A stretch of DNA of 64,000 bases. It comes from Sphingobacteriales bacterium. GTDB taxonomy: Bacteria; Bacteroidota; Bacteroidia; Chitinophagales; CAIOSU01. The DNA lies in assembly GCA_027486795.1 (NCBI GenBank), contig JAIXOI010000040.1, positions 10,972-74,971 on the forward strand, written 5' to 3'. Both the position numbers and the translations under genes were made by a program. Positions within the stretch are counted from its first letter, which is position 1, and every line of letters starts with the position of its first letter. This document shows, one piece after another, positions 8,880 through 57,845 of this stretch. The notes beneath the pieces are model-generated. The model saw only the letters and a list, made by a program, of their open reading frames with translations. It did no database searches and had not been told where the DNA came from.

Positions 8880-8889
8880 AAATATAGCC

Positions 8890-9909: not shown

Positions 9910-9950
9910 GCAGGGGCTATACACTTACACATCTTACCAACCAACCACTA

Positions 9951-12852: not shown

Positions 12853-12858
12853 CCTGCC

Positions 12859-23212: not shown

Positions 23213-23536
23213 CTAAATGCCCTCTATCAACTTGAGTAACTCACTCTCCGAAATACTGTCTTGTTCCGATTTATCGTAAATACTGAGCAGATAAACGGTT
23301 TCGTCTAAAACCAATACGTAGGTAATTACCCGAGCACCTCCCGATTTCCCTTTACCTTTGGAGGTAATGGCCATGCGAACTTTATAGCAATTATTGCCAA
23401 GAGCCGTTCCTTGTTGGGGGTTTTCTATTAATAGTTCGCCAAGTTCTTGAACATCCGCCTTTATGGATGCGTGTTTTTTTGATAGTTTCTTAAGCAACTT
23501 CAAAAAACGTTCGGTAATAACAATCTTAAAGCTCAT
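23213..23536 (-). CDS. RelE/ParE-superfamily type II toxin
   Basis: 107 aa with KGKSGGARVITYV...YLLSIYDKSEQDSIS, typical of this toxin class. It overlaps the upstream small gene by 11 nt. Confidence 0.7.
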   Translation of the reverse strand: MSFKIVITERFLKLLKKLSKKHASIKADVQELGELLIENPQQGTALGNNCYKVRMAITSKGKGKSGGARVITYVLVLDETVYLLSIYDKSEQDSISESELLKLIEGI

Positions 23537-23732
23537 CCAAACCCTCTTTTAGGGTCCGAAGCTTTATTTTCCCAGCCTTGTGCAGCTTCACTTCTTCCAC
23601 CGAGGCTTTCAGGTCTTCCATCAGTTCAGCTTTGGCTTCGGTTAGCTTTTTAGCTTTCACAAAAGGCAAGCTTTCCAGCAATTCCATTACAAATGCTGCT
23701 TTGCTGTCTTTTACGTCTAGTAATATTCTCAT
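23526..23732 (-). CDS. putative cognate antitoxin
   Basis: Small acidic/helical protein (MRILLDVKDSKAAFVMELLESLPFVK...) overlapping the toxin start. I place the start at Met22 of the ORF-track frame. Confidence 0.5.
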   Translation of the reverse strand: MRILLDVKDSKAAFVMELLESLPFVKAKKLTEAKAELMEDLKASVEEVKLHKAGKIKLRTLKEGLDEL

Positions 23733-24066
23733 GGCACCGGTATTAATAAGTAAAACGACATTGCCCCTAGTATGCTTCAAGGCATTCTCTAACAATAATA
23801 CAAATTTTGTTATACTGGTTCAAACCACAGGCAATAATGGGAATTACACTTGGTTATTCATTGGCCAGAACCTCTGGTTCTCCGCTTAAGAGCTATGCCT
23901 TTACGTAAGCCACCGGTGCACAAGTTGCTTTCGCAACCATTTACACTAATTTACGGAGCGTTTTTATTCTTGCAAAATATAAACTCCATTTATTTTTTGG
24001 TAAAAACGCAAATGGTTGATAGTGAGGGATAAATTTTTCGTTTTGCTTAGTAAATGCCCCAAAAGC

Positions 24067-24411
24067 TTACGCCTTCTTCAAAAATTCCGATTTTAAGGCC
24101 AAGGCGCCAAAGCCTGGTATTTTGCAATCTACGTTATGGTCGCCCTCAGTAAGCCTGATGTTTTTTACTTTGGTACCCGCTTTAATAGGTATAGGAGAGC
24201 CTTTTACGGGTAGGTTTTTGATAACGATAACCGAATCGCCGTTTTGTAGTTCATTACCATTGGAGTCGAGCACTACCAACCCACTTGGCTCATTGCTTTG
24301 CTCCGTTGGGATCCATTCGTGTCCGCACTCGGGGCAGGCATATTGCGTTTTGCTAGTGGCATATCCGTATGGCGATTTACATTGCGGGCAAGGTTTCATT
24401 TCATCTGGCAT
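24067..24411 (-). CDS. phnA: zinc-ribbon protein YjdM/PhnA
   Basis: CPQC...CPEC zinc ribbon followed by the conserved C-terminal SH3-like part (GD.V..IK.L.VKG....K.GTKVKNIRL..GDH..DCKI). Confidence 0.85.
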   Translation of the reverse strand: MPDEMKPCPQCKSPYGYATSKTQYACPECGHEWIPTEQSNEPSGLVVLDSNGNELQNGDSVIVIKNLPVKGSPIPIKAGTKVKNIRLTEGDHNVDCKIPGFGALALKSEFLKKA

Positions 24412-25572: not shown

Positions 25573-26481
25573 TCAATACACCTTGATACCATACTTCAAT
25601 AATTTTTTCGGTAAGTGGTCGTCAAGGTTTGCGATGTCGATGTCGTCAAGTTCAATCAATTTCAAATCATATTTCTTGTAGATTTCCAATTTTATTTTTT
25701 TTCGTTCTAAATATTTTGGGTCGCTTTCCATTCCCCAAAATTCGATGTAAACTTTACCATTTGGTAAATAGAAGTCCGTATATAGCTCTTCTTCAATTGG
25801 AACTTTCTTTTCATAAGCGTGAACTAAGCCGTAGTCATAAAGAGTGTCGTCAATAATTACTTCAGCTCTTGAACGCACAAAATGCCCATCTTTGGTTCGG
25901 TGTTTAGCTTCAAATTTGTCCCGAAAATTGTTTGATGTCGAAACAGGTTTCTGCGTTTGTTGTTGCGGTGTCACCATTGTTGCAGCTTGTTTCGGAGTTT
26001 CTTTTTCAATTGATGTGTCATTGAAAACGCCAACTAAACTTTTGTTTTGTAAAATATCATCTGGCCATAAAACATAAGAACCACCCGAAGTTTCGTGTTC
26101 AAATTGTCTGCCGCCAACATTTTTACCAAGTTTTGTTATTGTCCAACCTGCAAGGTCTTTTTCTATCCATCCGAATTCCGACAAAATTAAATTCAGTCGT
26201 TGCGATGAAATATTGAAGTGTTTTCCAATTGCTGTAGCATTCAGAAATTTCGGCTTCTCTTTTTGCTGTCCTCCGTCAAGTGATATGTTTTCAGGCCAAA
26301 CAACAAACTCCCCGAACTTCGGGTTGTTTCGCGTCTGTCCGCCTTTTTGCTTTCCAAGTTCGGTTAAAACCCATTTGTCATTTTTTCTTTCAATCCAACC
26401 AAGTGCTTTCAGTTTGTCAAACAGGTCGGCTGATTTAATGTCGAGTTCGTTTGCAAGTGCTGATGTCGAAATGTATTCCAT
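25573..26481 (-). CDS. hypothetical protein: duplicated N-terminal putative winged-helix module + C-terminal restriction-endonuclease-like (PD-(D/E)XK-like) domain
   Basis: Two repeats of about 85 aa (..LGWIERKNDKWVLTELGKQKGG...VVWPENI and ..FGWIEKDLAGWTITKLGKNVGG...VLWPDDI). The C-terminus VRSRAEVIIDD..YE..TDFYLPNGKVYIEFWG..K...Y resembles Vsr/DUF559/DUF2726-type folds. This is recognition from memory only. Confidence 0.45.
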   Translation of the reverse strand: MEYISTSALANELDIKSADLFDKLKALGWIERKNDKWVLTELGKQKGGQTRNNPKFGEFVVWPENISLDGGQQKEKPKFLNATAIGKHFNISSQRLNLILSEFGWIEKDLAGWTITKLGKNVGGRQFEHETSGGSYVLWPDDILQNKSLVGVFNDTSIEKETPKQAATMVTPQQQTQKPVSTSNNFRDKFEAKHRTKDGHFVRSRAEVIIDDTLYDYGLVHAYEKKVPIEEELYTDFYLPNGKVYIEFWGMESDPKYLERKKIKLEIYKKYDLKLIELDDIDIANLDDHLPKKLLKYGIKVY

Positions 26482-28721: not shown

Positions 28722-29537
28722 TTGGCAAACAACCATACCAGCCATACCAAATTGAACCTATTGGCCTACTTGGGCAAGGTGTACCACTACCGCAAAATGG
28801 TGCGCACCCTTGTGCGCCGCGACCTCAAGAAACAATATGCCCAAACGTTTCTGGGCGTGTTGTGGTCGGCTATACAGCCCGCCATTGGCTTGGTGGTGTT
28901 TACGTTGTTTTTTGTCTACATTTTTAAGATTGATACCAATGGTATTGCTTACCCTTTGGTGGCGCTAACGGGTATTGTGCCTTGGTTTTATTTTCTCAAT
29001 GTGGTTTCATCGGCAGGCAATTCGCTGACCGATAACCAAGACCTGATAAAGCGGCTATATTTCCCTCGATTGATATTCCCATTGGCTAAATCCATTACCG
29101 CTTTCGTCGATTTGGGCATTGCTTTTGTACTTTATACCCTGTTGGCGGTATTTTACGGTCAATTGCCCGGAAAAGCCATCCTACTTTTACCCGTCTTTTT
29201 GGGTATGTTGGTATTGTTGGCGCTTACGCTAGGTATTTGGTTGGCAGCGCTCACTATCCGTTTCAGAGACTTGCAAAACGTGGTGCCCTACCTGCTCAAT
29301 TTAGGTATATGGGTTACGCCGGTGTTTTACCCTGTAAGTGTTGTGCCGCAACCAATACAGCCTTATTTGCATTGGAACCCGATGGCCGGTATTATTGAAG
29401 GTTTTAGGTACAGTTTATTGGGCACCGGCAATTGGGATATGGCCTACCTCTACCCCTGGCCGTTTGTTTTGATTGCTTTTGTGGGCGGCCTTTTGTATTT
29501 TAGAAGAACAGAAACGATAGTTTCAGACTACTTGTAG
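28722..29537 (+). CDS. ABC-2 type polysaccharide/O-antigen exporter permease (Wzm/KpsM/TagG-like)
   Basis: 271 aa with 6 TM segments. The N-terminus YRKMVRTLVRRDLKKQYAQTFLGVLWSAIQP is typical of ABC2_membrane exporters. Confidence 0.85.
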   Translation: MANNHTSHTKLNLLAYLGKVYHYRKMVRTLVRRDLKKQYAQTFLGVLWSAIQPAIGLVVFTLFFVYIFKIDTNGIAYPLVALTGIVPWFYFLNVVSSAGNSLTDNQDLIKRLYFPRLIFPLAKSITAFVDLGIAFVLYTLLAVFYGQLPGKAILLLPVFLGMLVLLALTLGIWLAALTIRFRDLQNVVPYLLNLGIWVTPVFYPVSVVPQPIQPYLHWNPMAGIIEGFRYSLLGTGNWDMAYLYPWPFVLIAFVGGLLYFRRTETIVSDYL

Positions 29538-29622
29538 TATGATAAAAATCATTGACAACGAGTGCAGTGTTGGCTATCATTACACCGTTAACCTTTTTCA
29601 TTCGCAAAATAAAGATTGATAT

Positions 29623-30594
29623 ATGGGCTTTTTAAGCAGACTTTTCGGCGGCGGTGCAGATACAGCCGTGAAAGAACCAGTAAAAGCAGCAGCACCTGCG
29701 CCAAAACCATTGCCTAAGCTAGGGCAAGATGCCAACAAGTTCCGTCAAATTTTCCGCGACCCAGCGCTTCAAAAGCAATTTGAAGAAGACGGGTATGTAA
29801 TTGTTCAATTTTTGGAGCCAGAGGAGATTCAAGCCCTGCTCGATTTTAAGAACGGTACTAGACCTGATAACCGCTTCAACACCAATGCCGAAGACGCTAC
29901 CTATCACTTTACGTTTTTGGACACTAACATACCTTATAAAAAGGAGGTATTCAATACCGTGATGCAGTTTTTTCAACCTGCTATTGATAAGTGGATGATT
30001 GATTACAAGCCGCTGATTGTAAACTTTGTATTGAAGGATGCAGGTTATGGCGAAGTGCCCGTGCACCAAAACTGGAACTTTGTGGATGAGGAGAAATTCC
30101 GTTCGTTCTCGGTTTGGGTGCCTTTGATGGATACCAATGCCGAAAACGGTACACTGCAAATCATTCCAGGTACGCATACACAAAACTTCCATTACGCCAT
30201 TCGCAGCCCATGGATTCCTTGGTATTTTAAGGATTTCTCTGATTTCGTTATCAAAGAATACCACCGCCCCTTGAATGTAAAAGCTGGCCAAGCCGTTATT
30301 TTTGATGATAGTTTGATTCACTACTCTAGCCCTAACAACAGTAAAGAGCAGCGTATTGTAATCCAAAACATCATTATCCCTGCTGAAACAGAAGCGGTGC
30401 ACTACTACGTAGACCCAGAGCGCCCACAAGTGCTGCAAACCATGGTAGTGGACAAGGATTTTTATTTGGACTACGATATGCGCGCTACGCCAACAGGCTT
30501 TAAGTCGGTTGCCGAAGAACCGTATGTCGACCGCACCGTTGACAAGGAGACCTTTATTGCTATGATTAAGGCCAAGGGCATCGATAAGAAGTAA
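29623..30594 (+). CDS. PhyH-like Fe(II)/2-oxoglutarate oxygenase family protein (variant H-x-N motif)
   Basis: HQNWNFVDE, SVWVPLMDTNAENGTLQIIPGTH and AVIFDDSLIHYSSPN......R motifs, paralogous to the three downstream domains. Confidence 0.7.
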   Translation: MGFLSRLFGGGADTAVKEPVKAAAPAPKPLPKLGQDANKFRQIFRDPALQKQFEEDGYVIVQFLEPEEIQALLDFKNGTRPDNRFNTNAEDATYHFTFLDTNIPYKKEVFNTVMQFFQPAIDKWMIDYKPLIVNFVLKDAGYGEVPVHQNWNFVDEEKFRSFSVWVPLMDTNAENGTLQIIPGTHTQNFHYAIRSPWIPWYFKDFSDFVIKEYHRPLNVKAGQAVIFDDSLIHYSSPNNSKEQRIVIQNIIIPAETEAVHYYVDPERPQVLQTMVVDKDFYLDYDMRATPTGFKSVAEEPYVDRTVDKETFIAMIKAKGIDKK

Positions 30595-30616
30595 ATGCTA
30601 AAGTAAAAAGCGACCA

Positions 30617-33169
30617 ATGAAAGTGGTGAACGATGTAGATGCGGTGGAACGCTATTATGACGAGTGGACCGGCCGTTATCTGGAGGTTTATGGCGACATG
30701 ATTCAAGCGTTCCGTAGTGCCGACGATAAGGACACCCTTGGTCGCATAGCCAATAGCATTGGCTTTAAACCCGGCGAGCATATATTGGATGCAGGCTGTG
30801 GTGTAGGCGGCCCAGCAAGGTTTTTTGCCCAAAACAACGGTGTAACCGTTGAGGGCGTTACCGTAAGCCAAGTGCAAGTAGATACCGCAAAGGAAAAAAA
30901 CCTTGCGGCTGGCTTAGACGATAAAATCAAAATTAAGAAAGCCGATTTCCATACCCTTACCGAGCACTTTAACCGCGAGCGGTTTGATAAGGTATTGTTT
31001 CTCGAATCGTTGGGCCATTCCAAAGAACCTGAGAAAGTATTGAAAGGTGCTTTTGATGTGCTGAAACCGGGTGGCTATGTGTATATCAAAGACTTTTACG
31101 CCAAAGAAAGCGATAACCCAGAATACCAAGCGTATATTGACAGGTTGGTAAACAACATCAATGTGGCATATAGCTACAATACGCTTGACCTAAATGTGGT
31201 GCTTAAAGCCATGCGCAGGGCGGGTTTTGAGGTGGAGTTTATTCGCCCGGTACCCATTGAGCATGATATTGAAGTAAGGGCCGATTTTGAATCGAAATTC
31301 GGTATTGACCTGTTCGAAGGGGGGTTGGATTTCCCTTATGCCGATTGGTTAGAAATAAAGTGCTGGAAACCTACTTATCGTTTCAAAAACCAAAAGCAAT
31401 TTGTAGATGAGAACCTACAGACTACTTATGATAAGCAGGGTTTTGTAACCACGCCATTGCTAAGCGCCGATGAGGTAAAACAATTATCTGATTGGTTTTA
31501 TGCCAACCAGCCCGATACGGGGGGCAACTTCCAGGCCACTATTGAGATACAAGATGCCGAGTACCGCCGCAAAGTAAACGCGATGGTAAAGGAGGTAATT
31601 GGCAGCAAAATAAAGAAACTATTGCCGGGCTACCGTGCCATAGTGGGTGGGTATGTAATAAAACCACCTGCTGAAGGCGGTATCAAAAAAATGCATAGCG
31701 ACTGGCAATATACCGACGAAACCGTGCAGCCGAGCTTCTCGGTTTGGGTGCCGCTGTTGCCTGTAAACAAAGAGAATGGCGCCATGATGTTCATACCTGG
31801 CAGCCATAAACATGCAGCCTTATTGCGCGGGCAACATACCGTAAACGCCTACGACATTATTGAGCCGATATTGAAAGCCGATAGGGTAGTAACCATTGAG
31901 CAACCACCTGGCGAAGCGGTGATATTTGACCAGCGCATTTTGCATGGCTCGGGCGAGAACTTTACCACCGTGCCGCGCTTGGCCATGACCCTCACCATTG
32001 CCCCCGTGGATGCTGATTTGCTGCATTTTTATCGCGACCCTGTTACACAGGCGCACAACACCATGACCAAATATGTGGTGCCTGAGCATTTTTATCTCGA
32101 TTATGATTTCAACTTCCCACCCGATGAAAAATACAAGGTGGGTGAAGTAGTGGATAAGAATTTGGATTGGGTAGTGAGCAATCTCAAAACAGAGTATGCC
32201 AAAGGCGATGGGCCTTTGTTTGTAGAGAAAATGCGAGAGAAACCCATTTCTGCCAGACGGGTGATGATAGCTGAGGCAGATGAAAGGGCTATGGAAGAAG
32301 AGGGTTTCGTTATCAAACCTTTTCTCAGCACCGAAGAAATTACCTACATGCAAGGCTTGTGGGACCAAGAAACGGCAGGCCTCACCCAAAGCATGGTGGC
32401 CACAACCATGAGCACCAATAAGGCTTTCAGGGAGCATTTGCACGCCGAAATTTGCCGCATTTTTGCGCCAAAGCTTAATGCCATACTGAAGGATTACAAG
32501 CCATTGAGCGGCGCGTATATCATGAAACGCCCTAGCCCCGATAGTGCTTTGGTAACGCATTTCGATTGGATGTTTGTGGACGAGCGCCGCTATGCAAGCA
32601 TGCACGTGTGGGTGCCTTTGGTTGATGTAGATGCCACCAATGGAGCGTTCCAGATATTGCCGCGTAGCCACAATATGGTAAATGCTTGGCGCGGGCAGAA
32701 TACGTTGGATTCTATCTTCTTCAACAACAGAACCATTAAAGCTGGTGCCGCTCTGACGCTGAATATGAAGGCTGGCGAGGCATTGATTTACGACAACCGA
32801 TTAATTCATGGCACGCCACCAAACACTAGCCAGAATGATAGGCTAGCGGCGGGATTGGTTATGATACCTAATGAAGCAACGCCAATACACGTATATACCC
32901 CAGCTGAGAAAATGCATGATGAAGATGTGGAGGTATATGAAGTGGACGAACAGTTCTACTTCGACCACGACATTCGGGAGCGACCGGTAGGATATAAGTT
33001 CATTGAAAAGGTGCGCGATACGCGTCGCGGTGAAACGTTCCGTTTGTTGGAAGAGGCATTTTTGGAGCCAATCAAGAAAGTAGTTGAGCCTGTACACGAG
33101 ATTGCTGCACCAACAACCGAGGATAATGCCTCATTGCTTCAAAAGCTAAAAAGGACTGTTTTTAAGTAA
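30617..33169 (+). CDS. fusion protein: class I SAM-dependent methyltransferase + two PhyH-like oxygenase domains
   Basis: Methyltransferase: ILDAGCGVGGPARFF, VLFLESLGH, LKPGGYVYI (aa 1 to about 250). Oxygenase 1: H360-S-D362, SVWVPLLPVNKENGAMMFIPGSH, ILH443GSGEN. Oxygenase 2: H648-F-D650, HVWVPLVDVDATNGAFQILPRSH, LIH731GTPPN. Confidence 0.8.
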   Translation: MKVVNDVDAVERYYDEWTGRYLEVYGDMIQAFRSADDKDTLGRIANSIGFKPGEHILDAGCGVGGPARFFAQNNGVTVEGVTVSQVQVDTAKEKNLAAGLDDKIKIKKADFHTLTEHFNRERFDKVLFLESLGHSKEPEKVLKGAFDVLKPGGYVYIKDFYAKESDNPEYQAYIDRLVNNINVAYSYNTLDLNVVLKAMRRAGFEVEFIRPVPIEHDIEVRADFESKFGIDLFEGGLDFPYADWLEIKCWKPTYRFKNQKQFVDENLQTTYDKQGFVTTPLLSADEVKQLSDWFYANQPDTGGNFQATIEIQDAEYRRKVNAMVKEVIGSKIKKLLPGYRAIVGGYVIKPPAEGGIKKMHSDWQYTDETVQPSFSVWVPLLPVNKENGAMMFIPGSHKHAALLRGQHTVNAYDIIEPILKADRVVTIEQPPGEAVIFDQRILHGSGENFTTVPRLAMTLTIAPVDADLLHFYRDPVTQAHNTMTKYVVPEHFYLDYDFNFPPDEKYKVGEVVDKNLDWVVSNLKTEYAKGDGPLFVEKMREKPISARRVMIAEADERAMEEEGFVIKPFLSTEEITYMQGLWDQETAGLTQSMVATTMSTNKAFREHLHAEICRIFAPKLNAILKDYKPLSGAYIMKRPSPDSALVTHFDWMFVDERRYASMHVWVPLVDVDATNGAFQILPRSHNMVNAWRGQNTLDSIFFNNRTIKAGAALTLNMKAGEALIYDNRLIHGTPPNTSQNDRLAAGLVMIPNEATPIHVYTPAEKMHDEDVEVYEVDEQFYFDHDIRERPVGYKFIEKVRDTRRGETFRLLEEAFLEPIKKVVEPVHEIAAPTTEDNASLLQKLKRTVFK

Positions 33170-34026
33170 TGCGCACCATTTTTAAAAATAGCGCCCACCA
33201 AGAGCAATACAACCGCGATGGTTTTATTCGTTACCCTTTGCTATCAAGCCAAGAGATTACCGATTTGCTGACCGTTTACAAGGAGCTAAACTCAGGCTTA
33301 GAGGGTAATAAGTTTTATACCTCGCATACTAGTGGCGATGTGGCCTACAAAACCAAAGTAGACCAAGCTATTAAAGAAGTGCTGGTGCCTAAGTTGTGCG
33401 ATATTTTTGAGGATTACAAACCCGTGTTTGGCTTCTATTTGGTAAAATCGCAAGGCTCAGAGACCTTAGATTTGCACCTCGATTGGCAGTTTGTTGATGA
33501 GCGCCAGCATGCTGGGTTCAATATGTGGTGCCCATTGGTGGATGTGAATAAAGAAAACGGTGCCATTTTCGCCATCCCCGGCAGCCACAAGCATATTAAA
33601 ATATTGCGTGGCTGCAACACCCCTAACCCTATGTGGTATGTGGATGGAAAGGTAGATAAAAACCAAGTACAAACCCTTCCGCTTAAAGCGGGCGAGGCTT
33701 TGGTTTTCGATTTGCGCCTAGTGCATGGTGCCTGGCCCAACACCTTGCCACAGCAGCGCATTGCAGTGGGTATGGTTGCCATTCCGCAAGAGGCGGATAT
33801 ATTGCATTTTTGGACTGAAAAGGAAGAACGAGGGCACAAGGATATTGAAGTGTACCGTATGCAGCCCGAATACTACATGCTCAATCACAACGGCCAACGC
33901 CCCCCTGCCGAAAGCCTTATTGGGCATTGGGATGACACCTTACGCGAGCAAACCATTGCCGACCTAAAAAAAGCCTACACCCAAAAGCCTTCGTTTATCA
34001 AGCGGCTGCTTGGTGCTTTGGGGTAA
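33169..34026 (+). CDS. PhyH-like Fe(II)/2-oxoglutarate oxygenase family protein
   Basis: HLDWQFVDE, NMWCPLVDVNKENGAIFAIPGSH and LVFDLRLVHGAWPN....R motifs. The start overlaps the upstream stop (TAATG at 33167-33171). Confidence 0.75.
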   Translation: MRTIFKNSAHQEQYNRDGFIRYPLLSSQEITDLLTVYKELNSGLEGNKFYTSHTSGDVAYKTKVDQAIKEVLVPKLCDIFEDYKPVFGFYLVKSQGSETLDLHLDWQFVDERQHAGFNMWCPLVDVNKENGAIFAIPGSHKHIKILRGCNTPNPMWYVDGKVDKNQVQTLPLKAGEALVFDLRLVHGAWPNTLPQQRIAVGMVAIPQEADILHFWTEKEERGHKDIEVYRMQPEYYMLNHNGQRPPAESLIGHWDDTLREQTIADLKKAYTQKPSFIKRLLGALG

Positions 34027-34078
34027 TATTAGCTAATTCGTTTAACTTAGTTGAGCAGTTATCTAAATTGCCGAAGCA

Positions 34079-34378
34079 ATGAGCAAAATCAAAAACATAC
34101 ATCCAGGTGAGATTCTAAAGGAAGAATTTTTGATTCCCCTCGGAATAAGTGCCTATAGATTATCAAAGGACTTAGATGTGCCTCAAACACGCATATCTGG
34201 TATTTTGAAAGGAAGTAGGCGAATAACTGCTGACACTGCACTTCGGTTATCACGTTATTTTGGTAATTCAGCTAAGTTTTGGATGGGCCTGCAGGATGAT
34301 TTCGATTTAGAAGAGGAAAACAATAACATACAAGGAGCTTTGGAAGACATTAAGCATTTTAATGCTAATGCTGCCTAA
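34079..34378 (+). CDS. higA: HigA-family antitoxin / XRE-type HTH protein (no adjacent HigB)
   Basis: IHPGEILKEEFL.PLGIS.Y.L.....VP..RIS.I..G.R.ITADTALRL..YFG.S..FW..LQ is the canonical HigA pattern. Confidence 0.85.
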   Translation: MSKIKNIHPGEILKEEFLIPLGISAYRLSKDLDVPQTRISGILKGSRRITADTALRLSRYFGNSAKFWMGLQDDFDLEEENNNIQGALEDIKHFNANAA

Positions 34379-34396
34379 AAATAGGATGCTTTTATC

Positions 34397-35680
34397 ATGA
34401 CCCAACAACCCGAGCACGTAATTATTGTAGATAAGGTAACCAAGCGGTTTCGCATGTATGCTAACTACCGTGCGAGCCTTGCCGAAACGCTGAAGGATAA
34501 GGTAGGTGCTTTACTGGGCAGTAATGGCAAGCAAAAGTTAGGCGATAAGGTAGCCCTTAATGAAGTTTCCTTTGCCATAACTAAGGGTAGTACCGTTGGC
34601 ATTATTGGCCGCAATGGTTCGGGTAAGAGTACCTTGCTGCGTATGCTAGCGGGTATTACTGAGCCTACATCGGGTAGCATTGAGGTGAAGGGCAAAGTGA
34701 CCAGCATACTTGATATCGGTTCGGGTTTCATTGCCGACCTTACTGGCCGCGAGAATGTAATGATGGCAGGCAGCTTGATGGGAATGGATGACAACCTTAT
34801 CCGTCAACGAATGGATGAGATTGTATTGTTCAGCGAAATTGGCGACTATATTGACGTGCCCGTAAAATACTATTCTAGTGGCATGTACTTGCGCTTGGCG
34901 TTTTCTTTGGCCGTGCATTTAGATATGGATGTGCTACTGATTGACGAAGTAATTGAAGTAGGCGATGAAGCCTTTAAAATAAAGAGTTACAACAAGCTAA
35001 AGCAACTTACCGGGCAGGGCCATACCATCCTCATCTGCACGCACAACATGCGTTCGGTGGCTGAGTTGTGTACCGAATGCTTGGTAATAGAGCAAGGCAA
35101 ACTGATTGCCCAAGGCGACCCACAGCAAATGGTGGAAGCGTATATCGAGAAAATTTGGAGCAATAGCTACGAGCTGGAGAAAGGCCAAATACCATTAGCT
35201 TATCTTGAGGCAGAATTAAGCAAATTCCCCACTAACGAATGGCTCCAACTCACGCATTTTGTATTCAATCAGGATGGTGAAACGGAGCAGTTATATACCG
35301 ATAAAGCACTTAATCTAACCCTTCGGTACCGCAAGCTAAAACCCGATGCCACTATCAATGCCAGTATTTGGGTGTTCGATGCCATGCACCGCCCTATACT
35401 ATCTGGCAACAGTATGCCTTTGGAGCCGAGCATTACAACGGATGCAATTGGCGAATACGAGATGGCGGCCCATTTCCCTGCCAACTTTTTCAATAAAGGA
35501 TTGTTCTTTTTGAGGCTGCACTTCATCAAAGACAACGAGCGCCTCATACACGAGCACCCCAACCACCTACCTTTTAAAATGCACCTCCGCCACACCGACC
35601 CCAACAACCTAAAAATGGATGGCCGCGTAGGTAGCCCGCTATATATGCAACTGCCTTGGGAGAAGCGGTTTAGGGGTTAA
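34397..35680 (+). CDS. polysaccharide/O-antigen ABC exporter ATP-binding protein (Wzt/TagH-like) with an extended C-terminal domain
   Basis: Walker A GRNGSGKST, signature YSSGM, Walker B LLIDEV. About 170 extra C-terminal residues (from about 35159) follow the NBD. Confidence 0.85.
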   Translation: MTQQPEHVIIVDKVTKRFRMYANYRASLAETLKDKVGALLGSNGKQKLGDKVALNEVSFAITKGSTVGIIGRNGSGKSTLLRMLAGITEPTSGSIEVKGKVTSILDIGSGFIADLTGRENVMMAGSLMGMDDNLIRQRMDEIVLFSEIGDYIDVPVKYYSSGMYLRLAFSLAVHLDMDVLLIDEVIEVGDEAFKIKSYNKLKQLTGQGHTILICTHNMRSVAELCTECLVIEQGKLIAQGDPQQMVEAYIEKIWSNSYELEKGQIPLAYLEAELSKFPTNEWLQLTHFVFNQDGETEQLYTDKALNLTLRYRKLKPDATINASIWVFDAMHRPILSGNSMPLEPSITTDAIGEYEMAAHFPANFFNKGLFFLRLHFIKDNERLIHEHPNHLPFKMHLRHTDPNNLKMDGRVGSPLYMQLPWEKRFRG

Positions 35681-35705: not shown

Positions 35706-36353
35706 TCATTTGATGTCAATGAAAAAGACAGTATCAATAAAGAAAAGATTTTCATTCCTTACAAGCACATTTTCATCATGCATATCTTCCAGTATTAGGC
35801 CAAGGTTTTGGCTATAATAGTCGTTCCTTTTGATGTTTTCAAAGCCATTTTTCTCTAAAAAGGTCTTAACATCACTAAGATCTGTAACTGCATCTGTAAT
35901 AATAAAAGGTTGTTCCAACACTGCAAGTAATTCGCCATCAGCCATTATGAAGGCAAGTAGTAAGTATCTAGTATCTAGAAATAATAGATTGTGTATGAGG
36001 ATACTATTAAGAAAAGCTAGCCAAGTAGAATAATAAATGGCATCGTTTAGCTTGATGACTGTATTTCTTGTAGTACTGAAATGTATTTTAGCTTCGCCCC
36101 CTTCTGTAAGAAAATTTTCATCCGACAACTCTTCTTTAAACCAAAGATTATTGTCTGTTGCAAAATCAATTAGGCAGTTTTTCTGTGCTTCTTTGATGAT
36201 TGATTCACCTTGGAAGCTTCTTGTAACTTTTGTATTTGTGCTAAAGCGCCCTGATAAGAAATTTCGGGCTGCTGTGAGATTATCTTCTCTCCCAAGGATG
36301 CTCTTTCCTCGAATGATAGTTTCAAGTTCTTCGTGCTTTTCATGGGTTATCAT
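35706..36353 (-). CDS. hypothetical protein with an atypical kinase-like C-terminal half (AT-rich gene)
   Basis: GGEAKIHF, IHNLLF and LILEDMHDENVLVRNENLFFIDTVF resemble the glycine loop, the catalytic D.H..N and a DxD-like metal site of small phage-type polyvalent kinase domains. This is a motif-level call only. Confidence 0.4.
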   Translation of the reverse strand: MITHEKHEELETIIRGKSILGREDNLTAARNFLSGRFSTNTKVTRSFQGESIIKEAQKNCLIDFATDNNLWFKEELSDENFLTEGGEAKIHFSTTRNTVIKLNDAIYYSTWLAFLNSILIHNLLFLDTRYLLLAFIMADGELLAVLEQPFIITDAVTDLSDVKTFLEKNGFENIKRNDYYSQNLGLILEDMHDENVLVRNENLFFIDTVFFIDIK

Positions 36354-36454: not shown

Positions 36455-38080
36455 CTATTTCCTCAACACACAATCCCCAATAACCAATACATCCATACCA
36501 CAACCATAGAACGCCGAAACGGCATCGATGGGGGAGTGGACGATGGGCTCGTTGTCGCGGTTGAAGCTGGTATTGAGCACTACGCCGTGGCCATTGAGCT
36601 TTTTGAAGTGCTGCAATAATTGGTAATAAAGGGGGTTTTGTCGTGTATTAACGGTCTGTATGCGGGCAGTGCCATCAACGTGCGTAATAGCAGGCAACTG
36701 CTTGGCTGCCGCGGGTTTCACGTTGTAAGTAATGGTCATATACGGGGCAATGGCTTGTGCACCCTCAAAGTATAGTGTTGAATCTTCCTCTAATACCGAT
36801 GGGCAAAATGGCCTAAACGACTCGCGGAACTTGATTTTAAGGTTTACCAACTCTTGCATATCCGCGCGGGTTGGGTCGGCGAGGATGCTGCGACAACCAA
36901 GGGCGCGGGGACCAAACTCATCCCTGCCCTGCACCCAGCCCACTACTTTGCCAGCGTGTATGGCTTCGGCTGCAATTAAGGCAGGGTCGGCAACGCGCTC
37001 GTAGGTGGCATGTAGTTGGTCCAGTATATGGCTTATTTCCTGGTTGCTGTATCCCCGGCCCCAATAAACATTATCGGTAGGCACTGGCTTTTGCCCTACT
37101 GCTGCTGAGGCCAACATAGCTGCACCTAACGAAATACCCGCATCGCTGCTGGCGGGTTGAATAAACAGGGCCTCCACTTCGGGCAGGTCCATGAGTTTTT
37201 GGTTGACCACACAATTGAGTGCCACGCCGCCCGCTAGGCACAACTTGCGGATGCCAGTCTGTGCTATGTAATGCTTTACGATATTGGTAATGGCTGCTTC
37301 CAGATGCCATTGTGCACTGGCGCCAATGTTCTTGAACCGTTCGTCCAACGCTTCGCCTTTGCGGCGGTTAGTGCCCAGTTTGTCCATCAACTTCTGATTG
37401 AAAAACATCTCCTGTTTGCTGGGTTGTGGTTGGCCGGGTTTTATTTCTACTAAGTAACTAGTATCCAGCGTATATTGGCCTTCATCGTGCAAGCCCAATA
37501 GCCAATCGAAATTATAGCTACCGCCATCGCCATAGCTCGATAGGCCCATCAGTTTGTACTCGTCGCTATCTTTCTTAAAGCCACAATATTGGGTTATCAA
37601 GCTGTAAAACAGTCCCAAGCTGTTGGGTCGCTCAAAGCGGTGCAATAGCTTCAGTCCATCGGCATTACCTATGCTTACTTGTGTGCAAACGCCATCGCCA
37701 GAGCCATCAATGGATATTACTAACGCCTCATCATATCCTGCCGCATAAAAGGCACTGGCACTGTGGCAATCGTGGTGGTGGTAGCGCTGTATAGTGGGCA
37801 CATGGCCAAAGGTGTTTTTGAAATACCCTGTAAGCACCTCTTGGTATTGATCGCCCCAAGTGCTGCCGTGGGTGGCTACTATGTCAATGTCTTGTATGGT
37901 AATTCCGCCAATGCTCAATACTTCCACAATAGCACGTTCAGGCAGTTGGTTGGGCGAGTTTTTTACCCGGTTAAGGCGCTCCTCTTCAATGGCGGCAATT
38001 ACTTCGCCGTCCTTCATCAGTACGGCAGAGATATCTTGATACCCCATGCGCACACCACCATTTATACCGAGTATGTACAT
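36455..38080 (-). CDS. carbamoyltransferase (NodU/CmcH family)
   Basis: The N-terminus YILGINGG...QDISAVL..DGE...AIEEERLNR.K and the length fit the family. I place the start at Met25, 2 nt after the upstream stop. Confidence 0.85.
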   Translation of the reverse strand: MYILGINGGVRMGYQDISAVLMKDGEVIAAIEEERLNRVKNSPNQLPERAIVEVLSIGGITIQDIDIVATHGSTWGDQYQEVLTGYFKNTFGHVPTIQRYHHHDCHSASAFYAAGYDEALVISIDGSGDGVCTQVSIGNADGLKLLHRFERPNSLGLFYSLITQYCGFKKDSDEYKLMGLSSYGDGGSYNFDWLLGLHDEGQYTLDTSYLVEIKPGQPQPSKQEMFFNQKLMDKLGTNRRKGEALDERFKNIGASAQWHLEAAITNIVKHYIAQTGIRKLCLAGGVALNCVVNQKLMDLPEVEALFIQPASSDAGISLGAAMLASAAVGQKPVPTDNVYWGRGYSNQEISHILDQLHATYERVADPALIAAEAIHAGKVVGWVQGRDEFGPRALGCRSILADPTRADMQELVNLKIKFRESFRPFCPSVLEEDSTLYFEGAQAIAPYMTITYNVKPAAAKQLPAITHVDGTARIQTVNTRQNPLYYQLLQHFKKLNGHGVVLNTSFNRDNEPIVHSPIDAVSAFYGCGMDVLVIGDCVLRK

Positions 38081-38082
38081 GC

Positions 38083-39303
38083 TTAGCGCCCGTGTTTGTA
38101 GTACTTCAAATAAGCAACTTTTGGCAATAGGTTCATTTGCGACATAAGCCATACCATTGGCCTAGCTAGCTTTATTAGTGGGTAGCTGGTTGGTAGGTCG
38201 TGAAAGTCTTTAGCAGGCAATGCCAAGTAGTTATCAAATTCTTCTTGGGTAATGCCCAAACGCTTAATGCAAAGCTGTATCACCTTTGGGTCTTCAATGG
38301 CGTATATACCATGTGCTCTCGCCAAAGCATCTTCTCGCTTCAATTCACCATTGCGCACCAGTGCCGAGTCGCTGTTCATGTTCATATCAATATTGAACTT
38401 CACCCGGTGCACATATTTAATCAAGCTGTGGTATAGGTCGTCAAAGTAATGCGCGCCAGGGTATACCCATTCTAAGTTTTCGGTGATTATTTTCTCTGCC
38501 GTTGGGCGGTGATAATCGCTGTAATACATTGGGGTAAACGTGCGGATGCCACGCTGAACGGTGTAATAGAACATCTCCTTTACGCCCATATTAAAGCCTG
38601 GGTCGTTGGGGGTCCAAGGGCGCAGGGGCAGGTCGCTGTGCATTTTATGCACTGCCCGCAGGTAGTCGCCATCAAAGTAAGCCCACGAAAGCGGTTTCAC
38701 GCCTTCGGTGCGGAACGATTGCCCAATCAATATATACTTTACGTTTTCTTTAGCAGCTACCCCAAAAAGCGATGACGCAATACCAATGTCAGTACCCAAA
38801 TTCAAATCGGGGCACGATGCTTTCAGGAAATCTATTTTCAGTTGTTTGCCCTCGCGCCAATCGCTGGTAATGGTGCGTAGTTCCACGCCCAGTATGCGGC
38901 AGGCGTTTATCATGTTCTCGCCTGCAACAGGGTTATCAAAGCCATCGTTAAAGTGCACGGCAATGGCACGCAGGCCCCATTCTTTTACCACTTTCCATAG
39001 CAAGTAAATGCTATCTCTGCCGCCGCTTATGCCTACTACTACATCAAACTTGCGGTTCTTGCCTTTTTCCTTTATCTCTGCAAATATTTTATCTAATATG
39101 GCCTTGCCTTTTTCCCCGTTAGGGAACATACCATCTAGTTTGTCCCACAGGTGGCAAAAGTTGCATTCGCCATTATGATCGAAAGAAATACCAGGCACGG
39201 TGCTGTCTTGCACACAGCGAGTGCAAATTTGGTAGGTAAGTTCGGGGTGCAACTTACCATTTACTACTACTCCCTTTTCACCTATTTTAAATGAGTTCGT
39301 CAA
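38083..39303 (-). CDS. N-acetyl sugar amidotransferase (PP-loop ATP pyrophosphatase; WbpG/PseA/WbuX type)
   Basis: N-terminal Cys motif CTRCV.D...PGISFD..GECNFC followed by the PP-loop GISGGRDS. Confidence 0.8.
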   Translation of the reverse strand: MTNSFKIGEKGVVVNGKLHPELTYQICTRCVQDSTVPGISFDHNGECNFCHLWDKLDGMFPNGEKGKAILDKIFAEIKEKGKNRKFDVVVGISGGRDSIYLLWKVVKEWGLRAIAVHFNDGFDNPVAGENMINACRILGVELRTITSDWREGKQLKIDFLKASCPDLNLGTDIGIASSLFGVAAKENVKYILIGQSFRTEGVKPLSWAYFDGDYLRAVHKMHSDLPLRPWTPNDPGFNMGVKEMFYYTVQRGIRTFTPMYYSDYHRPTAEKIITENLEWVYPGAHYFDDLYHSLIKYVHRVKFNIDMNMNSDSALVRNGELKREDALARAHGIYAIEDPKVIQLCIKRLGITQEEFDNYLALPAKDFHDLPTSYPLIKLARPMVWLMSQMNLLPKVAYLKYYKHGR

Positions 39304-40126
39304 ACTGGTAGCCTTTGTTTTTAAGCATTTCGCCTATTTGGGTTCCTTTTTCAGGGCGCTCAGGCACTTCAAACTCAATAGTACGCAATTCGCCGGCAAA
39401 TTCATTAAACTGCCCTTTGGTTAATACGCCATCTTTGCTCACTACCAAACTGCAGCCCACCATTTTTTTACCCTCGTAAGGGCCGCCCACAATATAGCCC
39501 ACGCTGGTGGTGCTTACCACCACTAGGTTGTGTAAGCGTGCCAATATCGAGAAAGGCTTTTCCCACTTATCGCGGTAGGGGTCGTCTTCTTCGGTAATAT
39601 GGTAGTCTACCGTCCATGAGCTGGGCGACAGGATGATTTGTGCACCCATTCGGGCTAGCGTATGCCCAATGTGCAAGGAGTCGCTATAGTTGTCGGCGCA
39701 TATGTTGAGGCCTATTTTACCAAATGGCGTATCAATTACGTTCAGCGTTTGCCCCACCTGGTAGTATGGGTGCTCCACCACCAGTAGGTTTATCTTTTGC
39801 GCTTTGCCGATAATGGTGCCTTGGTTGTCAATAAGCAATGAGGTGTTGTAGTTCACATCGCCTACCTTTTCGGTAAGGCCTACACAAATGTAAATGTTGT
39901 GTTCTTTAGCAGCGTTGGTAAACACTTCGCTAAACGGCCCCGGTATGGGTTCGCTTTCTTTCAGCGAGCTGGGGTGGGTCCAAGCAAAATCAATGGTTTC
40001 GGGCAGAATGATAATGTCGCAACCTTCCTTGGCGGCCTTGATTATCATCTTTTGCGCGCGCTCAAAATTTCTCCAGGGCTCGCCGCCTTCTACCAATAAC
40101 TGCCCCAGACCTATCTTTACCTTCAT
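39287..40126 (-). CDS. carbon-nitrogen hydrolase (nitrilase superfamily) protein
   Basis: E-K-C triad context (ILPET; K in QKINL; GLNICADN). I place the start at MKVKIGLGQ. The 3' end overlaps the amidotransferase start by 17 nt. Confidence 0.8.
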   Translation of the reverse strand: MKVKIGLGQLLVEGGEPWRNFERAQKMIIKAAKEGCDIIILPETIDFAWTHPSSLKESEPIPGPFSEVFTNAAKEHNIYICVGLTEKVGDVNYNTSLLIDNQGTIIGKAQKINLLVVEHPYYQVGQTLNVIDTPFGKIGLNICADNYSDSLHIGHTLARMGAQIILSPSSWTVDYHITEEDDPYRDKWEKPFSILARLHNLVVVSTTSVGYIVGGPYEGKKMVGCSLVVSKDGVLTKGQFNEFAGELRTIEFEVPERPEKGTQIGEMLKNKGYQFDELI

Positions 40127-40365
40127 AAGTGTTAGTGTGCCTCTCAAAAATAGTGAAATTATTGTTTTCGATGTTGGCTGATTTTGTTTGAAATGTCCGG
40201 CCAACGGCATAAAGTAGCTGATTTTATTGTGGAGTTGAGTTTGAGTTGCTGAAATTCAATTTTCTTTTTAGTATCCTGTTTAAATCGCCCCAATACCGAA
40301 CCCTCCCCACTAAACCGATGTTTAAACATTTTTATGCGCATCTTTATGCCTAGTTTTGCATCGCA

Positions 40366-44137: not shown

Positions 44138-44560
44138 ATGGCAAACGAGCAGAAAACCTACACCGATAAAGCCCCAAAACCCGTGGGTGCATACCCGCAT
44201 AGCCATAGGGTGGGCAATTTGCTGTTCCTGTCGGGCATAGGGCCGCGCAAACCGGGCACAAATGAGATACCGGGCCTAAAGTTGGATGAACAGGGTAATA
44301 TACTGGAGTATGATATTGTGGCGGAGTGCCATAGCGTTTTCGCTAACGTGCGCACTGTGCTAGAAGAAAGCGGCAGCAAATGGGAAAATTTGGTAGACGT
44401 AACCGTGTTCCTTACCAACATGAAGGCCGACTTTAAGCAGTACAACGAGGTATATGCCGAGTACTTTAAAGATGCACAGCCCTGCCGCACTACGGTAGAA
44501 ATAAAAAGCCTGCCCACGCCCATTGGCATTGAGCTAAAGTGTATTGCTACTATTGATTAA
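44138..44560 (+). CDS. ridA: RidA/YjgF-family reactive intermediate deaminase
   Basis: KAPKPVGAYPH....GNLLFLSG and PCRTTVE..SLP....IE motifs. Confidence 0.85.
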   Translation: MANEQKTYTDKAPKPVGAYPHSHRVGNLLFLSGIGPRKPGTNEIPGLKLDEQGNILEYDIVAECHSVFANVRTVLEESGSKWENLVDVTVFLTNMKADFKQYNEVYAEYFKDAQPCRTTVEIKSLPTPIGIELKCIATID

Positions 44561-45500
44561 GGGCATCTTCGGTGGCTTTGCGGCCCCAGTCTTGTAGTTC
44601 TTGCTCGCTCCAAAGCTCCGGGAAAAAAGTAACCCTGCGGGCGCGTGCCGGCAAGTACTGTTGCCAGTTGGTGCCGCCGCTGGCCTTAATATCTTGCGGC
44701 TTTTTCATGAGGTAGCGCACCGCGCTTTTGTAGTGCATGCTAGGCCACTCCACGTTGGCGGCATGATCAAAGGCACGCATTTCGGCAATTACTTCTGGGT
44801 TTTGTTGGTCTGCTTCGGGTAGGCGGTGGTAGCGTTCTAGCACATTGGTATCTCTATATTCGGCCAAAAGGCGCTTAAACTCTTCGGCATACTTCAATTC
44901 AAACTGGCGCAAGGTAAGGGTTTGCTTTCCTGATGCCAGCTCGGTAGCGCCTTTTTTCCAGTAAAGGTTGTTGTATAGTTCGTCGGGTGTGGCACTAGCC
45001 ATGGCCTCGCGGGTTTCGTAGGCGGTTAGGTAGCGGGTCTCGGTGGCGGCAATCTCTATCATGCGGTATTGAGCGCTCTGGAAACCGCTAGCAGGCAACA
45101 ACGCCATACGGAAACTTAGGAACTGGTCCTTGTCCATGCCATCCACCATTATCTCGAAGCTCGATATCAAGGCTTTGTAGTAACTATTGATGCGCTTTAG
45201 TTGTATTATCAATTGCTCACCAGTAAGCACTTCTGCTTTAGCCACTTGTTCCAGGGCGTGGCGTATGAGTTTCATGTATAACTCTGTTATCTGATGGTAC
45301 ATAATGAAAATCTTCTCATCAGGGAACGGTGTGCGGGGTGTTTGCAGGTTAAGCAGTACATCTAAGTGGATGTAATCCCAGTAGGTAAGGTAGTCGGCAT
45401 ACAGCAGCCCATCAATGTACGAGAGCATATCTTGCCCCATTACGGCATACTTGCCTTGCAGTTTTACCAACCGCTCTTCTAGTTCGGGTGTTATTTCCAT
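44550..45500 (-). CDS. kynA: tryptophan 2,3-dioxygenase
   Basis: YWDYIHLDVLLNLQ, IMYHQITELYMKL and SGFQSAQYR motifs of the TDO family. Confidence 0.8.
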   Translation of the reverse strand: MEITPELEERLVKLQGKYAVMGQDMLSYIDGLLYADYLTYWDYIHLDVLLNLQTPRTPFPDEKIFIMYHQITELYMKLIRHALEQVAKAEVLTGEQLIIQLKRINSYYKALISSFEIMVDGMDKDQFLSFRMALLPASGFQSAQYRMIEIAATETRYLTAYETREAMASATPDELYNNLYWKKGATELASGKQTLTLRQFELKYAEEFKRLLAEYRDTNVLERYHRLPEADQQNPEVIAEMRAFDHAANVEWPSMHYKSAVRYLMKKPQDIKASGGTNWQQYLPARARRVTFFPELWSEQELQDWGRKATEDALNQ

Positions 45501-45585
45501 CGTTCAAAGATGGCATTTGCTGGGTGAAATAGCAAATAATGCCTAACGATTGTTAGCTGACTTTGGTTAGGTATCAAGGCAGTCG

Positions 45586-46734: not shown

Positions 46735-46736
46735 TG

Positions 46737-49157: not shown

Positions 49158-49163
49158 GCTCAG

Positions 49164-49952: not shown

Positions 49953-49974
49953 AATTACATAAATTAATAGGAAC

Positions 49975-51195: not shown

Positions 51196-51246
51196 GGGGC
51201 AAAGTTAGTTGCGGGTGGTTACCGTAATAGGTATTTACGCTTAAAT

Positions 51247-53154: not shown

Positions 53155-53204
53155 AGTGCAAAGGTAAGTGCTTATGAATTAGTATTTTTACAGGAGGCAA
53201 CAAA

Positions 53205-57736: not shown

Positions 57737-57845
57737 ATTAGATATGAAATATAAAATTTGAAATAGGAAACATTGCTCCTAATTTGCAAAAGTGCAATGC
57801 ATTGTCATTCAATTCCAGTCTTTCACATTTCCTATTCCACATTTC

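Follow-up and report, generated by a model that had tools for sequence, protein, structure and literature searches.

Analysis of the window, a 64,000-nt stretch of contig JAIXOI010000040.1 from a Sphingobacteriales bacterium, revealed a block of genes between positions 28,722 and 35,680 in which a Wzm-like permease gene and a Wzt-like ATPase gene of an ATP-binding cassette (ABC) transporter are separated by genes for one methyltransferase (MT) and four PhyH-family oxygenase domains. Coordinates are positions in the whole window, and strands are as given in it. The five main open reading frames (ORFs; 28722-29537, 29623-30594, 30617-33169, 33169-34026 and 34397-35680) all lie on the + strand. 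The first-pass annotation, made from the sequence alone, had placed the permease and the ATPase on the same strand 4.9 kb apart, and ORF calling and Pfam searches confirmed this. Its account of the intervening genes, three ORFs carrying four copies of one domain together with one class I MT, was borne out by Pfam as well, except that a fourth ORF at 34079-34378, encoding a HigA antitoxin, had been overlooked. The features of the block are as follows (SAM, S-adenosylmethionine).

28722-29537, + strand: wzm, Wzm-type ABC-2 permease (Pfam ABC2_membrane, 1e-16; weak NCBIfam matches to KpsM and galactan Wzm)
29623-30594, + strand: ORF1, PhyH-family domain of subgroup P0, with H-Q-N replacing H-x-D (Pfam PhyH, 7.9e-21)
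30617-31381, + strand: N-terminal class I SAM methyltransferase domain of ORF2, about residues 1-255 of an 850-aa fusion (Methyltransf_11/25/31/CMAS)
31382-32251, + strand: middle PhyH domain of ORF2, canonical H-S-D...H, subgroup P4 (Pfam, domain alignment, motifs)
32252-33169, + strand: C-terminal PhyH domain of ORF2, canonical H-F-D...H, subgroup P4 (Pfam, alignment)
33169-34026, + strand: ORF3, PhyH domain, canonical H-L-D...H, subgroup P4 (Pfam PhyH, 2.3e-19)
34079-34378, + strand: orphan HigA antitoxin gene, 99 aa, inserted between ORF3 and wzt (TIGR02607, 5.4e-31)
34397-35167, + strand: nucleotide-binding domain (NBD) of Wzt, residues 1 to about 257 (ABC_tran; TagH and galactan-Wzt NCBIfam)
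35168-35680, + strand: predicted C-terminal carbohydrate-binding domain (CBD) of Wzt, residues about 258-427 (AlphaFold2 fold, Foldseek, hhalign)

Gene callers start wzm at 28761 rather than at 28722, which gives a protein of 258 aa. The middle PhyH domain of ORF2 was assigned to subgroup P4 via a relative, L009 (related loci carry L numbers), a Chitinophagales metagenome-assembled genome that was deposited as Chitinophaga pinensis and shares 93% DNA identity with the window. The gaps between the operon genes measure 18-86 nt, and the TAATG overlap reported earlier for the last two intervening ORFs is present at 33167-33171, where the ORF2 stop meets the ORF3 start. An Rfam scan found no RNA families in the window, and counts of sigma-70 promoters and terminators over 28.4-36.6 kb did not exceed those in shuffled sequence, with models that leave Bacteroidota promoters uncovered. 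In agreement with the first-pass annotation, no ORF of 28.7-40.2 kb matched a glycosyltransferase family in Pfam.

HigA is no functional part of the export system. The higA gene is absent from L009 and from L002, and L010, a 91%-identical relative, carries a complete higB and higA pair (12483-13074 in that locus) at the very spot occupied by higA in the window, which indicates a recent insertion. A toxin-antitoxin pair thus entered the operon recently, and the toxin has since been lost in the window.

The transporter and the Wzt tail

The permease matched the Pfam ABC2_membrane profile over positions 3-210 of 211, as expected of a six-helix permease of the ABC-2 type. The ATPase matched ABC_tran at residues 54-185 (1.2e-18) and, among NCBIfam families, TagH (8e-56) and galactan Wzt (7e-52) more strongly than DrrA (3e-37). 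Bit scores were 176-190 for Wzt/TagH versus 121-129 for the drug and Nod-factor ATPases DrrA and NodI; as all of these matches lie below the equivalog cut-offs, they place the protein in the Wzt/TagH/KpsT clade without an orthology call. The best match in the Protein Data Bank (PDB) was the O-antigen Wzt of Aquifex aeolicus (2e-51), with TarH/TagH also among the best. On this sequence evidence, we assign the transporter to the Wzm/Wzt (O-polysaccharide and teichoic acid) class.

The NBD of Wzt ends at about residue 257, and approximately 170 residues lie beyond it, as had been noted before. An AlphaFold model of full-length Wzt, built with 38 homologues, had a mean pLDDT of 82.6 and comprised the NBD followed by an all-beta domain; it aligned with full-length Aquifex WzmWzt over approximately 396 columns (E 5e-34). 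Modelled alone with AlphaFold2, the tail reached a pLDDT of 90.6, and its top Foldseek matches covered all three known kinds of Wzt CBD, those from Aquifex (6o14, 8dky), Escherichia coli O9a (2r5o) and Raoultella O12 (5hno, 5hnp), with TM scores of 0.57-0.70 for 6o14, 8dky, 2r5o and 5hno. The Aquifex CBD in 8dky holds a bound 3-O-methyl-mannose.

When the five proteins were searched with profiles, the PhyH, methyltransferase, ABC2_membrane and ABC_tran families matched above their gathering cut-offs; the Pfam Wzt_C model did not match the window tail, so that the identity of the tail is drawn from its fold and from profile comparison. A homologue search using the tail alone matched nothing, the parent protein included, and full-length Wzt was used instead. 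Many of the homologues aligned over 90-98% of Wzt carry Pfam Wzt_C, and hhalign related the tails of the window's clade to Wzt_C-annotated tails with 98% probability (E 1.4e-13). The predicted fold and the profile comparison identify the tail as a Wzt-type carbohydrate-binding jelly roll, which answers in the affirmative the earlier question of whether residues 255-427 or thereabouts form the Wzt_C fold. In characterised systems, a CBD-bearing Wzt binds the chemically modified terminus of the chain and gates its export (PMC9445017).

The same proteins bear on another view of the cargo, according to which the transported compound is a lipid, a glycolipid or a hydrophobic natural product (isoprenoid or acyl) that the PhyH array hydroxylates or halogenates and the MT O-methylates, after which the pump flips or expels it. 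Lipid-exporting ABCA proteins do occur among the structural neighbours of the NBD. However, the ATPase scores against DrrA and NodI are lower than those against Wzt/TagH, and the tail is specifically of the Wzt type, a class of domain whose known ligands are glycan termini (PMC9445017).

PhyH domains and the methyltransferase

All three intervening ORFs matched PhyH (PF05721) above the gathering cut-off of 22 bits: ORF1 with 75.7 bits, ORF2 with 133.1 bits over two stretches (2.2e-38) and ORF3 with 71.0 bits. Pairwise identity among the four domains is 29-35% (BLASTP E 1e-32 to 1e-58), which indicates old paralogues rather than chance resemblance or recent repeats. Profiles of these domains matched the solved structures of MysH, SnoK, PHYHD1, PhyH itself, SnoN and EvdO2, with E-values down to 5e-17, and these matches predict a double-stranded beta-helix fold. 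By sequence, the repeated domain is thus a genuine PhyH-family 2-oxoglutarate (2OG) oxygenase.

Both PhyH domains of ORF2 and that of ORF3 have the 2OG-binding arginine and a complete metal triad, in which H-S-D, H-F-D and H-L-D, respectively, are joined by the distal His. Across 90 members of subgroup P4 these residues show little or no variation. The first-pass annotation had listed H-x-(D/N) among the shared motifs; three of the four domains carry the H-x-D form, whereas ORF1 has H-Q-N and no H-x-D. It lacks the carboxylate metal ligand of the 2-His-1-carboxylate site and retains the distal His and the Arg, its Asn150 being aligned with the metal-binding Asp of human PHYHD1. The H, the N, the distal H and the R are invariant in all 61 members of subgroup P0, which makes this a conserved variant site rather than a case of decay. 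P0 is also the most widespread subgroup, as its members occur in 60 of 85 surveyed loci and nearly always in single copy. As precedent for an Asn metal ligand, the literature offered only a second-sphere Asn in halogenases and a general remark on 2His-Asn cupin sites. A search with ORF1 against 1.84 billion cluster representatives returned only 3,035 matches at E<=1e-3, many of them two- or three-domain tandem PhyH proteins, and this small number sets them apart as a separate branch within PhyH, which is a very large family.

Searched as single sequences against the PDB, ORF3 matched EvdO2 (the best, 1.6e-6), MysH and SnoN, and EvdO2 was likewise the best oxygenase match of ORF2. The profile ranking differed, with MysH (4.7e-17), SnoK (8.1e-17) and PHYHD1 above EvdO2 (3.1e-11) and 6ec3 (4e-7). 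SnoK and SnoN act on a deoxysugar, and EvdO and EvdMO1 act on an oligosaccharide. Matches to TIGR04324, the 'sporadic carbohydrate cluster 2OG-Fe(II) oxygenase' family, whose defining feature is its presence in carbohydrate clusters, were weak (19.2, 55.1 and 26.4 bits versus a cut-off of 150; 7.8e-15 for ORF2), and the window proteins are not members.

The MT domain was matched at ORF2 residues 43-168 by Methyltransf_11, Methyltransf_25, Methyltransf_31 and CMAS with E-values of 1e-14 to 1e-15, all above the gathering cut-offs. Its PDB matches were about equal for MitM, phosphoethanolamine N-methyltransferases, the glucose O-methyltransferase 6uv6 and cyclopropane synthases. The CMAS- or sterol-MT-like N-terminus had been taken as a hint of a lipid-like cargo; this hint is weak, as enzymes acting on sugars and amines match at least as well, and the partial CMAS-like match, being common to both of those groups, is not diagnostic. 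WbdD structures are deposited in the PDB, but the 45 PDB matches obtained for ORF2 at E<=1e-3 include no protein of that name, and Pfam found no kinase domain in ORF2, with no search made for a coiled coil.

In ORF2 the MT comes first and two PhyH domains follow, which is the fusion order of 6ec3. This 471-residue structure is labelled 'methyltransferase domain-containing protein' and was matched by the A4 profile at residues 357-457; we take it to be EvdMO1, the methyltransferase-oxygenase fusion of the everninomicin pathway. The title of the EvdMO1 report is reference 15 of PMC10338323. PhyH domains fused to an MT belong mostly to P4 and in a few cases to P1, and P0 is usually a separate gene just upstream. 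An initial guess that the H-Q-N domain was the PhyH domain fused to MT in 520-aa relatives was rejected, because only one of the 61 P0 members shares a protein with an MT.

Conservation and neighbouring genes

Relatives were surveyed using one genome per species, and at least 483 genome matches were obtained; in 85 loci the ORFs were called, the proteins clustered and the recurrent clusters named by Pfam. The exact ORF2 protein is present on eight assembled contigs. Relatives with protein identities of 89% and 69% keep the order Wzm-PhyH-(MT-PhyH-PhyH)-PhyH-Wzt, although the more distant one has a fifth PhyH gene and entirely different neighbours. Shorter PhyH-MT fusions are widespread. Altogether the 85 loci hold 427 PhyH domains of the clade (median six per locus, maximum 13), a Wzt of approximately 425 aa in 57 loci and a Wzm in 51. 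The general expectation, cited in the first-pass annotation, that wzm and wzt are adjacent does not hold within this family: among the 44 loci with both genes, PhyH/MT genes split the pair in 26 and the pair is adjacent in 14, and the split loci have a median of five PhyH domains and 5.6 kb between wzm and wzt. One fixed order, 'Wzm-P0-P1·P2-P3-P3-P1-MT-Wzt', is found in many Flavobacteriales, Saprospiraceae and Chitinophagales, and another, 'Wzm-P0-MT·P4·P4-P4-Wzt', in the window's clade.

It could be argued that wzm and wzt were parted by an unrelated insertion whose genes have nothing to do with the working of the pump, given that the interval accepts foreign genes (higA in the window, higBA in L010). 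This is contradicted by the Wzm-PhyH...MT-Wzt order, which holds from 93% to below 30% identity and across several phyla. P0 stands immediately after wzm in 22 of 52 cases and the MT immediately before wzt in 16, and the tiny intergenic gaps and the overlapping gene pair likewise tell against a chance arrival, which we regard as scarcely credible.

The module has carriers in at least dozens of species. Most of these are uncultured Chitinophagales, Saprospiraceae and Flavobacteriales; some are Proteobacteria or cyanobacteria. Two cultured bacteria have versions of their own. Novosphingobium sp. TH158 (L006) has PhyH, PhyH-MT, a family-2 glycosyltransferase (GT2), UbiA, GT1, a sulfotransferase, PhyH, Wzt and Wzm. 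A plasmid of Methylomagnum ishizawai (L089) has two GT4 genes, a polyprenyl synthetase, a twitch radical SAM enzyme, AsnB, UbiA, a permease, an ATPase, MT, PhyH and a sulfotransferase. A plasmid of Oscillatoria acuminata PCC 6304 (L090, 10177-13503) encodes a 1,108-aa 'phytanoyl-CoA dioxygenase family protein', which probably consists of several tandem PhyH domains, with a sulfotransferase, an AMP-binding protein and a GT4 nearby.

At least one recurrent glycosyltransferase or UbiA-like gene is present in 52 of the 85 loci. A UbiA-like membrane protein recurs in 37, and the other recurrent neighbours include GT1, epimerases, DegT aminotransferases, AsnB-type amidotransferases, GDSL hydrolases, WelO5-like oxygenases, and SPASM/twitch and B12 radical SAM enzymes. 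Directly upstream of wzm in approximately 15 loci lie genes for an acyl carrier protein (ACP)-like protein, KASIII, a GT2, a GNAT protein, a 290-aa unknown and a second GT2. Pfam gave no or only sub-threshold matches for the 290-, 482-, 556- and 568-aa neighbour families and for the UbiA-like representatives, so these labels are tentative. The WelO5 family comprises carrier-protein-independent halogenases and hydroxylases; its genes (representative Pfam match 1.8e-70) occur in 14 related loci, for example L033, L044, L054, L058, L066, L073, L080 and L085, and many adjoin wzt.

The presence of radical SAM/SPASM genes in 27 related loci and of B12-radical SAM genes in 16 raises the question of whether the system belongs to a pathway for a ribosomally synthesised and post-translationally modified peptide, in which the oxygenases and the MT would modify the peptide and the ABC-2 pump would export it or confer immunity. 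Several hydroxylases combined with methyltransferases do recall proteusin-type tailoring. However, Twitch/SPASM radical SAM enzymes such as BtrN also act on sugars, and the pump is of the Wzt type with a CBD, not peptidase-containing or of the LanFEG type. The window itself has no radical SAM gene and no protease gene, and the gaps within the operon leave no room for a precursor gene; the 150-nt gap upstream of the operon contains only a 13-codon ORF, and it is not conserved in L002. In the absence of a radical SAM gene and of a conserved short ORF, we rejected a peptide pathway for the window and hold it to be very improbable in general.

Downstream of wzt, three genes on the opposite strand encode candidate accessory tailoring enzymes.

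36455-38080, - strand: carbamoyltransferase of the NodU/CmcH type, convergent with wzt (Carbam_trans_N/C, 6e-44 and 1e-68)
38083-39303, - strand: WbuX-like PP-loop N-acetyl-sugar amidotransferase (TIGR03573, 7e-56; 190 bits versus a cut-off of 203)
39287-40210, - strand: CN-hydrolase of the nitrilase superfamily (CN_hydrolase, 2e-33), with a 17-nt overlap with the amidotransferase gene

The carbamoyltransferase accompanies the PhyH-MT system in L002, L009, L010, L021, L039, L081 and L086, the amidotransferase shows the same co-occurrence, and the full trio is found in six loci. In L086 the trio immediately precedes PhyH-MT on the same strand, in L081 it does so in part, and L021 and L039 also carry it; owing to this recurrence, we count it as part of the system. 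The carbamoyltransferase is a probable accessory tailoring gene. In glutamine-dependent NAD synthetase, a PP-loop domain receives its ammonia from a nitrilase-type domain, and by analogy the CN-hydrolase is probably the ammonia-donating partner of the amidotransferase, in which case it would stand in for the HisH/HisF-like partners that WbuX usually has.

Between wzt and the carbamoyltransferase gene lies a slot that attracts small genes of a mobile or defence-like character. In the window it is occupied by a gene for a Kinase-PolyVal domain protein (35706-36353, - strand; Pfam 1.5e-56), and the slot shows no DNA similarity between the window and its relatives: L002 has a ParE toxin, a 61-aa ORF and a 301-aa unknown at this place, and L009 and L010 have other small ORFs.

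The nearest glycosyltransferases in the window belong to a putatively separate and unrelated Wza/Wzc-type locus at 44.5-59.7 kb (44550-59705, - strand), which comprises a family-4 initiating transferase, a tyrosine-kinase co-polymerase, a Poly_export protein, three GT1 genes, two AsnB-type amidotransferases and an epimerase/dehydratase.

Candidate cargo and comparison with known systems

We propose that the block forms a compact operon for tailoring and export in a surface-glycan pathway of the ABC-transporter-dependent type, in which an oxidised and/or methylated lipid-linked glycan would be read by the Wzt domain before export, and we assign this proposal a probability of about 0.5. In its favour are the Wzt-class pump with a CBD tail, the sugar-acting enzymes among the structural matches of the PhyH domains and the MT, the conserved gene order, the GT2, GT1, DegT aminotransferase, epimerase and AsnB-type genes of the relatives, the recurrent trio, and the annotation of PhyH genes in Xanthomonas wzm/wzt lipopolysaccharide cassettes. 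We infer the substrate and the site of its modification: a polyprenyl-diphosphate-linked glycan would be made at the cytoplasmic face of the membrane by glycosyltransferases that are encoded elsewhere in this organism. There, the three canonical PhyH domains would oxidise C-H bonds of its sugars or their substituents using Fe(II), 2OG and O2, the class I MT would methylate the glycan, and the H-Q-N domain of ORF1 would serve as a conserved, specialised member of the oxygenase set. The convergent trio may add amidino and carbamoyl groups. The Wzt CBD would finally recognise the modified non-reducing end and thereby license ATP-driven passage through the Wzm channel. As the presumed reader is encoded beside the writers, the module could move without glycosyltransferases.

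The first-pass annotation had envisaged a block that builds and reads a terminal cap. The Wzt-class transporter with its CBD tail agrees with that idea, but the 4-13 oxygenase domains of the related loci, with their subgroups in fixed order, exceed the apparent need of a cap and suggest a wider tailoring of the glycan, its substituents or another cargo. Oxidation could be aimed at several sites of a terminal oligosaccharide, at each repeat, at an N-acyl substituent, which would fit the ACP/KASIII/GNAT set, or at nucleotide-sugar precursors. The EvdMO1 precedent suggests, by analogy, methylation followed by oxidative ring closure. It is possible, and we advance it tentatively, that the PhyH array constitutes a cytoplasmic oxidative line acting on the lipid-linked glycan and yields sugars or linkages new to bacterial surface polysaccharides, such as extra hydroxyls that are then methylated or orthoester and methylenedioxy bridges like those of EvdO/EvdMO1, with P0 using a 2-His-1-Asn metal site and a chemistry of its own.

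Several observations weigh against the glycan proposal. Distinct oxygenase domains in such numbers are many for a cap or even for a simple repeat unit, and we know of no 2OG oxygenase that acts on a lipid-linked polysaccharide except KdoO, which acts on the lipopolysaccharide (LPS) core. The activity of ORF1 is uncertain, as its carboxylate metal ligand is missing. By profile, the window PhyH domains resemble the sugar-acting enzymes no more than they resemble MysH or PHYHD1, so their chemistry cannot be read off from these matches. Thirty-three of the 85 loci, the window's clade included, lack any recurrent glycosyltransferase or UbiA cluster, and the window's own clade has no glycosyltransferase within 10 kb. 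A bulk Pfam search of 97 unclassified neighbours in 25 of the loci without these genes found housekeeping families and no hidden enrichment of glycosyltransferases, indicating that the core can stand alone. The UbiA-like prenyltransferases, polyprenyl synthetase, ACP/KASIII, sulfotransferases, WelO5-like and radical SAM genes of the relatives fit a lipid or another natural product equally well, and the whole case is computational.

Some of these points count directly in favour of the lipid cargo introduced above: the core module sits by itself, with housekeeping genes around it, both in the window's clade and in approximately a third of the related loci, and the relatives carry UbiA-like genes, ACP with KASIII and GNAT, GDSL acyl-hydrolases, sulfotransferases, WelO5-like genes and, in Methylomagnum, the polyprenyl synthetase. 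The founding PhyH member, moreover, acts on an isoprenoid acyl chain. Against this, UbiA-like enzymes also produce polyprenyl-phospho-sugar donors, and the accessory trio of the window, with its WbuX-like enzyme and carbamoyltransferase, is typical of sugar modification. Together with the Wzt-type tail, these features lead us to consider a lipid cargo rather unlikely, although it deserves serious attention.

The current view is that simple caps (methyl, phosphomethyl or Kdo), which the Wzt domain reads, complete the glycans exported by ABC transporters, and to our knowledge no role of Fe/2OG oxygenases in capping such glycans has been described. The glycan operon proposed here shares with cap-dependent WzmWzt O-antigen export (Aquifex; E. 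coli O8/O9a with WbdD; Raoultella/Klebsiella O12) the ABC-2 permease and Wzt, the NBD family and the predicted CBD fold, and it has a SAM methyltransferase gene beside the transporter, as expected for a methyl-type cap. Unlike those systems, it has tailoring genes, 4.9 kb in all, inserted between wzm and wzt, and no glycosyltransferases at the locus. Its MT has no detectable relation to WbdD and no Pfam kinase domain, its four PhyH domains are without counterpart in described Wzt systems, and its tail is not reached by the Pfam Wzt_C model.

The orthosomycin oxygenases (EvdO1, EvdO2 and EvdMO1, AviO1-3 and HygX, of everninomicin, avilamycin and hygromycin) resemble the window system in that several PhyH-subfamily paralogues share one cluster and act on an oligosaccharide, and EvdMO1 is an MT-oxygenase fusion with the same N-to-C order as ORF2. 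They come, however, from antibiotic clusters of actinomycetes in which glycosyltransferases are numerous and Wzm/Wzt is absent, and they resemble the window domains distantly (E 1e-6 to 1e-11), not more than MysH, SnoK or PHYHD1 do. Orthoester or methylenedioxy chemistry in the window system is accordingly only a hypothesis by analogy. A further comparison is with the Xanthomonas LPS cassettes (for example XAC3597; BXO8-type), wzm/wzt loci in which PhyH genes are annotated together with a prenyltransferase and methyltransferases; they have one or two PhyH genes and no array, these genes are not reported between wzm and wzt, and the likeness is known from annotation.

The first-pass annotation knew of no ABC-dependent glycan system with a tandem PhyH expansion, and our literature search, which left most subscription journals outside its reach, agrees: it found no characterised pathway or paper with this module, only the Xanthomonas mentions at the level of annotation. 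The parts are familiar, unlike the conserved way in which they are combined, the large number of oxygenases in the array and the H-Q-N site that never varies. The layout is probably the sign of a mode of surface-glycan modification ahead of export that has yet to be described. The module implies either a class of oxidised surface glycans new to structural chemistry or a non-glycan cargo for a Wzt pump that keeps a glycan-binding domain, and either outcome would widen the known range of the Wzm/Wzt family and give a function to a sizeable orphan branch of PhyH. The invariant H-Q-N site offers a defined target for enzymology, and the cultured carriers, Novosphingobium sp. TH158 and Methylomagnum ishizawai, make the question directly testable.

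Elsewhere in the window, a full-length GH3-family protein of the acyl-acid amido synthetase type, with N, M and C domains matched, is encoded at 12859-14379 (+ strand). Upstream of the operon region, a RelE-family toxin gene and an 89-aa partner lie at 23213-23805 (- strand; 2597-3179 in L001), and the toxin gene adjoins a YjdM zinc-ribbon gene (24067-24411) and a gene for a 302-aa protein with a faint ANT-domain match (25573-26481). A type IX secretion cargo protein with an SprB repeat and a CHU_C sorting domain is followed by a PorP/SprF protein and an OmpA-family protein at 6648-11984 (+ strand). Two adjacent proteins of 425 and 882 aa at 2247-6217 (+ strand) consist mostly of collagen triple-helix repeats (Pfam 1.6e-24 and 4.2e-97), and these genes account for the local G+C peak of 0.56.

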